A stretch of DNA of 19,635 nucleotides, taken from a bacterium. Its GTDB lineage: Bacteria; Eisenbacteria; RBG-16-71-46. The position numbers are program-made. This document shows, piece by piece, positions 6,001-9,000 of this stretch. Numbering within the stretch: the first letter of the stretch is position 1; every line of letters starts with the position of its first letter. The stretch lies in NCBI GenBank assembly GCA_043779265.1, contig JAYWEM010000125.1:1-19635 (forward strand), written 5' to 3'.

Positions 6001-9000
6001 TCCGGCCGCGGGTTCGGCTTTCATGGTGTTGCTGCCGCCGATGCTGCTGACGTCAGGCGGTTCTGTATCGCACGGAGGAAGCCCATGCACCGTTGGCTCG
6101 CGCACAGCGCGCCCGGTGGCTCCTCTCGCACCCTGCTCCTCGCCGTAGTTGCGGCCTGCCTGATGTCGACGCCAGCCGCAGCGGATGTCACGGTCAAGGA
6201 GAGGACGGTGTCGTCCGGCCTCGGTGGTTTCGGGAACGGCACCAGCACCACGACCATGGTGATCGCGGGAGACAAGAGCCGCAGCGACGAGGAGTACATC
6301 TACACCGGCCGGATGAAGACGCTGGTGGGTGGCAAGCCGAGGCAGTCCTCGACGATCGTCCGCTTGGATCGCGGGATGATCCTGGACGTCGATCATGCCA
6401 AAAAGGAATACTCCGAGCTGACGTTCGCCCAGATGGGCCAGATGATGACCCAGGGCATGGCCGACATGCAGTCTCAGATGGCCGACCCGAAGGCGCGGCA
6501 GGCGATGCAGGAAGTCGAGATGACCTATAAGCTCGACGTCCAGCGGACCGGCAAGAAGGAAACGGTCAACAGCTTCGCGGCCGAGCAGGTGATCGTGACG
6601 ATGGTCGCGACCCCGAAGGACAAGTCCCAGGCCGGCGCGCCCGGCATGGGCAGCTACACGATGAAGATGGACCAGTGGCTGAGCACCACAGTGCCCGGCC
6701 AGGCCGAGATGTCCGCGTACTATCGGCTCTGGGCTGAGAAGATGGGGCTCGATCCGCAGCTCCAACGCATGGGCCGTGCGATGGCCGGTCCCTATGCAGC
6801 AGGTTTCAAGCAGATGGCCGAGAAGCTCAAGGACATCAAGGGCACGCCCGTCCGGAGCACGGTCACGATCGACATCGATGCGGCCGCCGGGATGACACCC
6901 GCGCAGAAGGCCGACATGGAGAAGGCCATGGCCGACGCCGAGACGTCGCGTGCCACGGCCAAGAAGAAGAAGGACGCGCAGGACGAGAAGGACTCCGATT
7001 CGGATGCTGCCTCGAGTGTCGCCAAAGGCGATGTCGGGGGCGCGCTGGGCGGGTTCCTCTCCAAGAGGCTCGGCAAGGCCGCGGAGAACAAGGTCGAGAA
7101 GTCGGTCGGCACGCCCAGAGCATCGGGTGGCAGCGCCGCATTCTCCTCCACCACCGACATGCTGAGTGTCAGCACCGGTGCCGCCGCCGCGAGTTTCGAA
7201 GTGCCTGCCGGCTACAAGAAGGTCGAGCGCAAGCTTCCGACGACCACTTCGCCCAAGAAGTGACGGGGTCGTCCGACTGGCGGGCTGAACGCCGCCAGAT
7301 CGAGCAAGCGCTCTCCCGATATCCCGCGCGGTGCGCTGGGCCACATGTGCCCAGCGACGCGCACACGAACCACCCCCGGGGTCGACTCCAGTCGCCCGGC
7401 AAGGACCCAACCCATGAGACCTCGCCGTCGCCGTGTCCGCACCCCCCGTCCAGTCGACGGTGGTGGTGCCCCCGAGAACCAGAATGAGGCCCCACCGATG
7501 AACGATTCACCTAAGCAGTTCGACGCGCCCACACCCGCATCCGAGAGCAGCGCCGAAGGCGCGCCGTCGGGTGGCGGGGAAGGCGATGGCGGACGCGAAG
7601 GAGGCTCCCGCGAGGGCGCCTTCCGTTACAGCAACAACAATCGCAAGCGCCGTCGGCGCCGTCGCGGCCCGGAGCCGCGCCAAGATGGCCGTGCAGCCAG
7701 CGGCCCGTCGAGCGGTGGCCCGTCCGGAGGTGGCCAGTCCAGCGGCCCCAGCTATCAGGACCGTGGCGATCGCCCCGAACGAGGTGGCCGTCGTGGTCGT
7801 CGCGGCCGCAGCACCGGCGGTGACTCGCCGCGTCCGCAGCGCCGTCGCGGACTCGAGGTGTTGCGCCAGATGCAGAACGTGGGCGCCGCGCTCGATCCGA
7901 CCGAACGCCTGATCCTCGAACTTCCCGCCGGTCAGGGCAGCCCGCCCGATGGCGATCGCATCACCGGCCGCGCGCTCGATCTGATCGCGCCTCTGGGACG
8001 CGGCCAGCGCTGCCTGCTGGTGGCGCCGCCCAAGGCCGGCAAGACGCGCATCCTCCAGTGCATCGCCGCCTCGATCGCGCACAACCACCCGGAGATCAAG
8101 GTGTACGCGCTGCTCGTGGACGAGCGCCCCGAGGAGGTCACCGACTTCAAGCGCAACACGCCGGCCGAGGTGATCGCCGCCTCCAGCGACATGAGCGCTC
8201 GCGAACACATCGAGTGCGCCGAGGAGGCGATGGACCGCGTGGCGCAGGAAGTGATCGACGGCAAGGATGTCGTGCTGCTGCTCGACTCGATCACGCGTCT
8301 GGCGCGCGCTTACAACTCGGCGGCCGGCAACGGTGGTCGCACGATGTCGGGCGGCCTCGACTCCAATGCGATGCAGGCACCGCGCCAGATCTTCGGCTCG
8401 GCCCGCAAGATCGAGAACGGCGGCTCGCTCACGATCATCGGCACCGCGCTGGTCGATACCGGCAGCCGCATGGACCAGATCATCTTCGAGGAGTTCAAGG
8501 GGACCGGTAACTCCGAGGTCTACCTGTCGCGCGAGCTGGCCGAGCGCCGCATCTTCCCGGCGATCGACATCGCCAAGAGCGGCACGCGCAAGGAGGAGAA
8601 GCTCATCGCCCCCGAGCTGCTCGGCACGTTCCAGACCCTGCGCCGCGTGCTGCTCGGCATGCCGCTGCAGGAGTCGATGAGCAAGCTCATCGACCGCCTG
8701 CAGAAGACCCAGACCAACGAGCAGTTCTACCAGTTGGTGCGGGTGGGCGAGAGCTAGGGAGTCGGCATCTCGTCCGGCGCGATTTCACTTCTTCAGCCGG
8801 TAGGGGAAATTGCCCGCGACCTTCTTGAAGAGTGACTTCGCCATCGCCTCGGAGGAGTTGGCCATGCCGCCCTTGTCGGTGTGGTCGTAGCTCCACAACA
8901 GGCTGGCGTTCGCTCCGTCGTGCAACGTCATGTTGATGTCGACACGCTCGGTGGAGCCGCTGAAACCCAGCAGCAGGGTCTGTGCGAAGGCGGCCCCCGT

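Follow-up and report, generated by a model that had tools for sequence, protein, structure and literature searches.

The window analysed here, a 19,635-nucleotide stretch of DNA from an Eisenbacterial genome, encodes a second Rho protein that retains the Rho ATPase domain and lacks both the N-terminal helix bundle and the OB-fold RNA-binding domain, in place of which it carries a disordered, arginine-rich tail. This paralogue is the Eisenbacterial member of a class that is already in print. The initial annotation had presented it as the first Rho paralogue, a claim that does not hold: the accessible parts of the Moreira 2024 survey (PMC11347177) list 116 genomes with two or more rho genes, as the annotation had suspected such surveys might, and describe an ATPase-only class, and the curated family NF041509 also exists. 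A division of labour like that of NusG and RfaH, put forward in the same annotation, is a hypothesis. We tentatively propose that the protein acts as an auxiliary, tail-loaded Rho motor beside canonical Rho and helps to release RNA from polymerase without rut sites.

The forward-strand frame previously placed at 7498-8757 is open, but its start was set too far downstream. The gene begins at the ATG at 7414, 28 codons upstream of 7498, with an MR.RRR N-terminus (MRPRRRR in the window) that recurs in 53 of 56 family loci, the other three being cut at an edge; the 56 loci are partly redundant and hold 45 distinct tails. An AGGA/GGAG motif precedes this start in most homologues. Moving the start to 7414 extends the tail to about 145 residues and gives it a third, N-terminal arginine patch. 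The upstream RNA fold is unremarkable (z -1.8), and a scan for promoters and terminators found none. The features of the gene are as follows.

7401..7405, forward strand: Shine-Dalgarno-like AAGGA, 8 nt before the true start (sequence; similar motif in most homologues)
7414..8757, forward strand: OB-less Rho paralogue, 447 aa, start revised (open reading frame, homologue start comparison, profile searches)
7414..7848, forward strand: disordered Arg/Gly/Pro-rich tail, residues 1-145, net charge +16, 6% hydrophobic (AlphaFold)
7417..7434, forward strand: Arg patch 1, N-terminal RPRRRR, missed by the initial annotation (homologue start comparison)
7642..7665, forward strand: Arg patch 2, run of eight R/K at residues 77-84, in mixed synonymous codons (sequence)
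7780..7809, forward strand: Arg patch 3, RG-rich, residues 123-132 (sequence, alignment)
7849..7956, forward strand: connector, a short helix (148-156) aligning with E. coli ~129-135, then a loop into the ATPase domain (AlphaFold, alignment)
8023..8046, forward strand: Walker A, with K210 and T211 matching E. coli K184 and T185 (alignment)
8119..8127, forward strand: D-E-R motif, catalytic Glu and Arg valve, E. coli D210, E211 and R212 (alignment)
8185..8187, forward strand: S258 at the position of E. coli F232 (F in 121/121 canonical-clade and 2/97 paralogue rows)
8284..8298, forward strand: Walker B D291 to Arg piston R295, E. coli D265 and R269 (alignment)
8332..8355, forward strand: Q-loop of the paralogue type GRT[ML]SGG (T at E. 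coli 284 in 96/97 paralogue rows)
8458..8472, forward strand: R-loop, with R352 matching E. coli K326 (alignment)
8587..8589, forward strand: Arg finger R392, E. coli R366 (alignment)
8632..8634, forward strand: Q407 at the position of E. coli W381, the proposed open-ring latch being lost (alignment)

Pfam places ATP-synt_ab at residues 158-361 of the form starting at 7498 and gives no match for Rho_N or Rho_RNA_bind; repeating the search, with the 447-residue form included at E<=1, returned the same architecture as first described. The C-terminal ~290 residues were identified as Rho ATPase by NCBIfam profiles and by Foldseek, in which the model matches E. coli Rho at 1.3 A over 287 columns. 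AlphaFold, run on a 71-row alignment (a single-sequence run gave pLDDT 39), assigns most blocks between residues 151 and 440 a mean pLDDT of at least 95. Walker A and B, the catalytic glutamate, the arginine valve, piston and finger, and the Q- and R-loops are all present. In E. coli numbering, P180, K184, D210, E211, R212, D265, S266, R269, R353 and R366 show no variation among the 55 OB-less rows, and the basic residues of the Q- and R-loops, regions said earlier to be kept, prove invariant in 32/32 Eisenbacterial and 19/19 other OB-less rows. A custom profile built from the OB folds of canonical and group-B Rhos gave tail-type N-termini nothing better than E 0.79; a cryptic OB fold in the tail was rejected by this profile together with the AlphaFold model.

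Residues 1-140 have block-mean pLDDT values of 38-60 and no secondary structure, so that the disorder first described for the N-terminus stands, over about 145 residues rather than ~115. Set against 20,000 random stop-free windows of the same 68% GC genome, the arginine content of the tail (21%) lies within chance (P=0.26); the run of eight R/K (P=1.5e-4) and the low hydrophobicity (P=0.013) lie beyond it. An internal R/K run of at least five occurs in all 45 distinct family tails, and in 73/73 rows the stretch of ~90 codons leading up to the connector has a net charge of at least +7, short tails taking in some upstream codons in this calculation. The residues called invariant in the initial annotation (R49, R51-54, G100 and R101) are present; because tails from outside the family cannot be aligned residue by residue, the word is true for the family only. 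The tails of Glaciecola and Spartinivicinus are rich in lysine, which points to selection for charge and not to an effect of GC content.

The canonical Rho of this genome, on contig C178, carries all three domains by Pfam and shares 54.5% identity with the paralogue over residues 158-412 (tblastn), confirming that the window's gene is a second Rho. A search of the 92%-complete assembly for an OB or Rho_N gene standing by itself gave none, and a split gene was rejected on that basis. About 1.3 kb downstream of canonical rho, apparently beyond two small genes, lies a Rho-like fragment (C178:12958-13299; 37.6% identity over query residues 300-414).

The paralogue is widespread in the phylum, as had been reported from 51 of 61 genomes: two or more Rho matches occur in 97 of the 121 genomes drawn over it, and the tail type in about 64 of 120 related genomes, counts that are floors because a stricter first look was applied. 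The tail type was called from a best E-value under 1e-96, with ~50 cases confirmed by sequence and one unpublished row (G015), on which no other result depends, included in the 64. By family, it is found in 41/44 genomes of the window's own, in 5/5, 7/7, 3/3 and 8/8 of four others, and in none of the remaining twelve. Several other Eisenbacterial families have a second Rho that keeps a divergent OB fold (L055, L058, L062, L065, L148, L053, L056 and L060). None of five genomes checked holds a tail-type copy together with a further full OB-keeping copy; third Rho copies were likewise rejected, the extras in five three-match genomes being partial matches. The nearest named relatives, among the matches listed, belong to Candidatus Eisenbacteria, and all 120 database hits listed carry PF00006 only, in line with the initial annotation.

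OB-less tailed Rhos are not confined to Eisenbacteria: basic-tailed counterparts occur in records labelled Rokubacteria, Omnitrophota, Planctomycetota, Binatia and, among Gammaproteobacteria, Glaciecola. Plasmid pB of Spartinivicinus ruber (NZ_CP048880.1; 102 kb) carries an OB-less Rho with a short Lys-rich tail (L173:3890-4849), on the strand opposite to an adjoining terminase and two holin genes, and this copy resembles a phage-plasmid cargo gene.

Across 107 loci no operon partner is common to the families and no RNA-decay gene is a conserved neighbour. An ORF without family match (window 5752-7263, forward strand) has homologues directly upstream of the paralogue in 12 of the 107 loci; a signal-peptide-like stretch suggests a later start for it, near 6082. 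On the reverse strand, 5306-5911, which has no Pfam or NCBIfam match, looks to us like a PduO-type cobalamin adenosyltransferase, and many family loci have a comparable ORF upstream of the paralogue, in their case on the same strand. Also on the reverse strand, 2413-5130 encodes a 905-residue protein with GreA domains only at 743-891 and a long N-terminal part without assignment, resembling the long GreA fusions NF011309 and NF004969 below both cut-offs; 9549-11108 encodes a ClpX-like AAA+ ATPase below the ClpX cut-offs, with a ~145-residue C-terminal extension, whose match to the ClpX model begins only at position 57-62, so that the N-terminal part is missing; and 11468-14347 and 14578-17295 are two adjacent eukaryote-like Ser/Thr kinase ORFs, the former with TPR repeats and the latter judged by translation alone.

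The initial annotation had considered a degenerate duplicate and argued against it, and the substitution pattern agrees. dN/dS is 0.008-0.086 in 12 close ATPase-domain pairs and 0.15-0.27 between the window's copy and seven relatives at greater distance; for the tail, 10 pairs give 0.15-0.52. Over 10 genome pairs the paralogue diverges at about twice the rate of canonical Rho (56-84% identity versus 80-94%); with kin that are not independent, all of these figures are descriptive. Together with the catalytic residues unchanged in every OB-less row, the ATPase values indicate a conserved gene under strong purifying selection and not a duplicate in decay.

In a 63-row IQ-TREE phylogeny, unrooted and with a bootstrap not fully converged, the canonical Rhos form a clade (99/94) outside which stand the OB-less rows and also the OB-keeping second copies of Eisenbacteria and Planctomycetota. 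OB-less proteins from the Eisenbacteria group in a clade of their own (99/97) from which other OB-less clades stand apart, and a single clade of all OB-less rows was neither recovered nor rejected (p-AU 0.166). The Spartinivicinus protein, a member of Table S3 in PMC11347177, groups with a Glaciecola and Omnitrophota OB-less clade beside the Eisenbacterial one, a sister relationship with weak support (84/36 without the Spartinivicinus member; SH-aLRT 89 for the joint set). Common descent with the published members of the class is a candidate relationship, one Table S3 member falling in this weakly supported sister clade; orthology to the myxobacterial members is a further candidate, the M. xanthus sequence lying outside the row set. 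Redundant family loci were dropped before tree building, as were 13 database proteins of truncated or chimeric appearance and the rows L133, L051 and L066; L022, L111 and L117 gave no usable ORF, and L053 is missing from the tree. In L051 and L066 the tail-type frame is apparently shifted just upstream of the ATPase domain, through sequencing error or as broken copies. Phenylalanine at 232 is lost in 95 of 97 paralogue rows, and the threonine at 284 is found in OB-keeping paralogues as well. These signatures, common to both kinds of paralogue, suggest an origin of the OB-less forms in the group-B radiation, as far as an unrooted tree can tell.

The published class is the closest match. Moreira 2024 lists 28 "Rho-like ATPase domain" proteins, described as well conserved (PMC11347177, Table S3), with examples in M. 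xanthus (MXAN_RS11995 = MXAN_2479), Colwellia, Opitutus and Spartinivicinus; the Myxococcales members have an initial low-complexity domain rich in D, G and R. The window's protein fits this class, as a Rho ATPase with essential residues and with neither helix bundle nor RNA-binding domain, and like the published members it consists of the ATPase domain alone with essential residues kept and is a second Rho in its genome, as in five of five species looked up. It differs in that Eisenbacteria gets 0 hits in the supplement as far as covered, and in that the survey calls the class non-functional, a label that follows from its definition and not from a test. Group B (Type 4 and 2d of D'Heygere 2013, as reported in PMC11347177) likewise comprises second copies without the helix bundle, with a GRT[ML]S Q-loop, F232 lost and W381 mostly lost, and like the OB-less forms lies outside the canonical clade, but it retains the OB fold. 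Canonical Rho of the E. coli type shares the ATPase fold with its catalytic and Q-/R-loop residues; the paralogue has neither PF07498 nor PF07497, W381, F232 and F398 are replaced, and it passes NF006886 (379 bits, cut-off 315) and fails TIGR00767 (374 bits, cut-off 509). NF041509, paralog_Rho2 (Rho, short form), is also a curated shortened paralogue, but the window's protein scores 344 bits against a cut-off of 628 and matches only model positions 98-357. In the Rhos of M. tuberculosis and B. thetaiotaomicron, too, the N-terminal face bears a disordered, Arg-rich region, which is reported to bind RNA or drive condensates; in those proteins, each the main Rho of its cell, the insert comes on top of an intact primary site, whereas the tail described here replaces the site in a second copy.

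The proposed latch of the open ring is gone as well. An aromatic residue (W, Y or F) occupies position 381 in 102/121 canonical-clade rows, 1/55 OB-less rows and 5/42 OB-keeping paralogue rows; since 37 of the 42 OB-keeping paralogues also lack it, the loss is not specific to loss of the OB fold. In a published proposal, a cation-pi contact between R353 and W381 keeps the ring open and has to break before it can close (PMC11829017). The accessible literature, with the Moreira supplement covered in part, makes no mention of the W381 or F232 pattern, which may nonetheless be in print, and yielded no role for F232. A search whose range excluded most subscription papers likewise returned no functional study of an OB-less Rho, and one may be in print.

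In the mechanism that we tentatively favour, the paralogue would form its own hexamer through its C-terminal domain, and its six tails, with about 18 arginine patches, would catch RNA by charge without specificity for C-rich rut sites. The tails would probably favour structured, GC-rich RNA and might form condensates. Loss of the R353-W381 latch would let the ring close on RNA without an allosteric signal from the primary site, after which the motor would translocate 5'-3' and free nascent RNA from polymerase on transcripts that canonical Rho loads poorly. Catalytic and pore invariance, the dN/dS of ATPase domain and tail, tail charge and the loss of W381 argue for this scheme, as do reports that the Rho hexamer is mediated by the CTD (10.1101/2022.09.02.506315) and that the disordered insert of M. 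tuberculosis Rho binds RNA alone (PMC4167861) and governs site choice (PMC13650167), the latter protein offering a precedent by analogy for tail-mediated loading. A gene of the same class is also expressed: in M. xanthus, which has both the canonical MXAN_5636 and MXAN_2479, the latter is reported as constitutive through development (RPKM 78-151 versus 102-200 for MXAN_5636; PMC6791715), with its protein detected by 7 unique peptides (PMC6627406). Other sources covered are PMC13613805 and PMC5449661. Against the scheme, primary-site binding is described as mandatory for RNA release in E. coli (PMC1950744) and a PBS ligand as required for termination even with the complex assembled (10.1101/2022.08.29.505764), and the M. 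tuberculosis insert works jointly with the OB fold and hampers the motor (PMC4499133). The non-functional label in the survey, divergence of the last three helices, faster evolution, the absence of W381 from most OB-keeping copies and the frameshifted appearance of two loci also count against it.

Alternatively, though this is quite doubtful, the paralogue may be a modulating subunit that enters mixed hexamers with canonical Rho, widening the range of substrates through its tail or damping rut-dependent termination by diluting primary sites. Canonical Rho was found alongside in every adequate assembly checked: it is present in the window's own genome, G009, G032, G039, G054, G089 and G091 and in four of five genomes from other phyla with an OB-less Rho. 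G039, once a candidate for a sole OB-less Rho, holds a canonical copy cut at a contig end, and G134, an assembly with no completeness figure, shows the OB-less copy alone. Hetero-hexamers have been proposed for group-B second Rhos (PMC11347177), no Rof inhibitor was found in this assembly, and the Spartinivicinus plasmid member adjoins terminase and holin genes as an anti-terminator might. Fixed, lineage-wide differences in the ATPase domain (F232, M219, 298-300 and D346) suggest instead that the two proteins evolve separately, and a subunit whose only task is damping could do without invariance of all catalytic residues.

It is unlikely, but consistent with the surface of the protein, that the paralogue is an RNA translocase that does not act on polymerase and serves in R-loop removal, RNP remodelling or as a degradosome helicase, possibly in condensates. 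The last three helices of Rho are reported to dock on NusG, the beta-flap tip and omega (10.1101/2022.08.29.505764; 10.1101/2022.09.02.506315). Position 398, which by helix number would fall in these polymerase- and NusG-facing helices, is hydrophobic in 98/121 canonical-clade rows versus 7/55 OB-less rows, so that this face has diverged while pore and catalytic core remain intact. Modelling of the NusG KOW domain together with a pair of ATPase domains scored 0.07 and carries no weight here. Arg-rich disordered regions are moreover reported to drive Rho condensates (PMC12360218; 10.1101/2025.08.28.672908). Yet I382 is poorly conserved in canonical Rhos too (25/121), the Rhos of M. tuberculosis and Thermus function without binding NusG (PMC12360218), and genes of RNA decay are not conserved beside the paralogue.

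It is improbable that the motor has moved to a substrate other than RNA, single-stranded DNA for example, or now serves as a nucleotide-regulated scaffold: the entire RNA-specific domain is absent and basic tails are not specific for RNA, but the Q- and R-loops that line the RNA pore are conserved. Very improbable is a non-functional remnant, the half of a split gene or an annotation artefact. The label given to the class in print (PMC11347177), the two copies that look frameshifted and an arginine content within chance by itself would fit it, but dN/dS largely refutes it, with purifying selection on both parts, a conserved start, retention in five families and no N-domain gene elsewhere in the assembly; an active role of some kind as an RNA motor is far more probable. 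A bicyclomycin-resistant back-up, which a second copy of the antibiotic's target might bring to mind, can be set aside, because all 11 Moreira pocket residues match the sensitive E. coli state in 55/55 OB-less rows, the eleven catalytic and pocket positions being unchanged there along with R353 and R366.

With some role as an RNA motor thus preferred, and the class itself already in print, the value of the finding lies in a testable mechanism, tail loading and loss of W381, and in the tractable system that M. xanthus offers with MXAN_2479. Surveys treat Rhos with the ATPase domain alone as non-functional by definition, and a lineage in which such a protein persists under strong selection offers a natural test of the primary-site rule; the outcome would tell whether a disordered basic tail suffices to load and activate a Rho ring, and it bears on the choice of termination sites in GC-rich bacteria. 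The broader proposition, possible but doubtful, is that Rhos of a second, widespread class are active terminators independent of rut sites, with a disordered arginine tail in place of the primary site and ring closure freed from primary-site control by loss of W381. If it is true, the rule that Rho needs an RNA-binding domain would be overturned, and many soil and sediment bacteria would have two Rho pathways with different targets.
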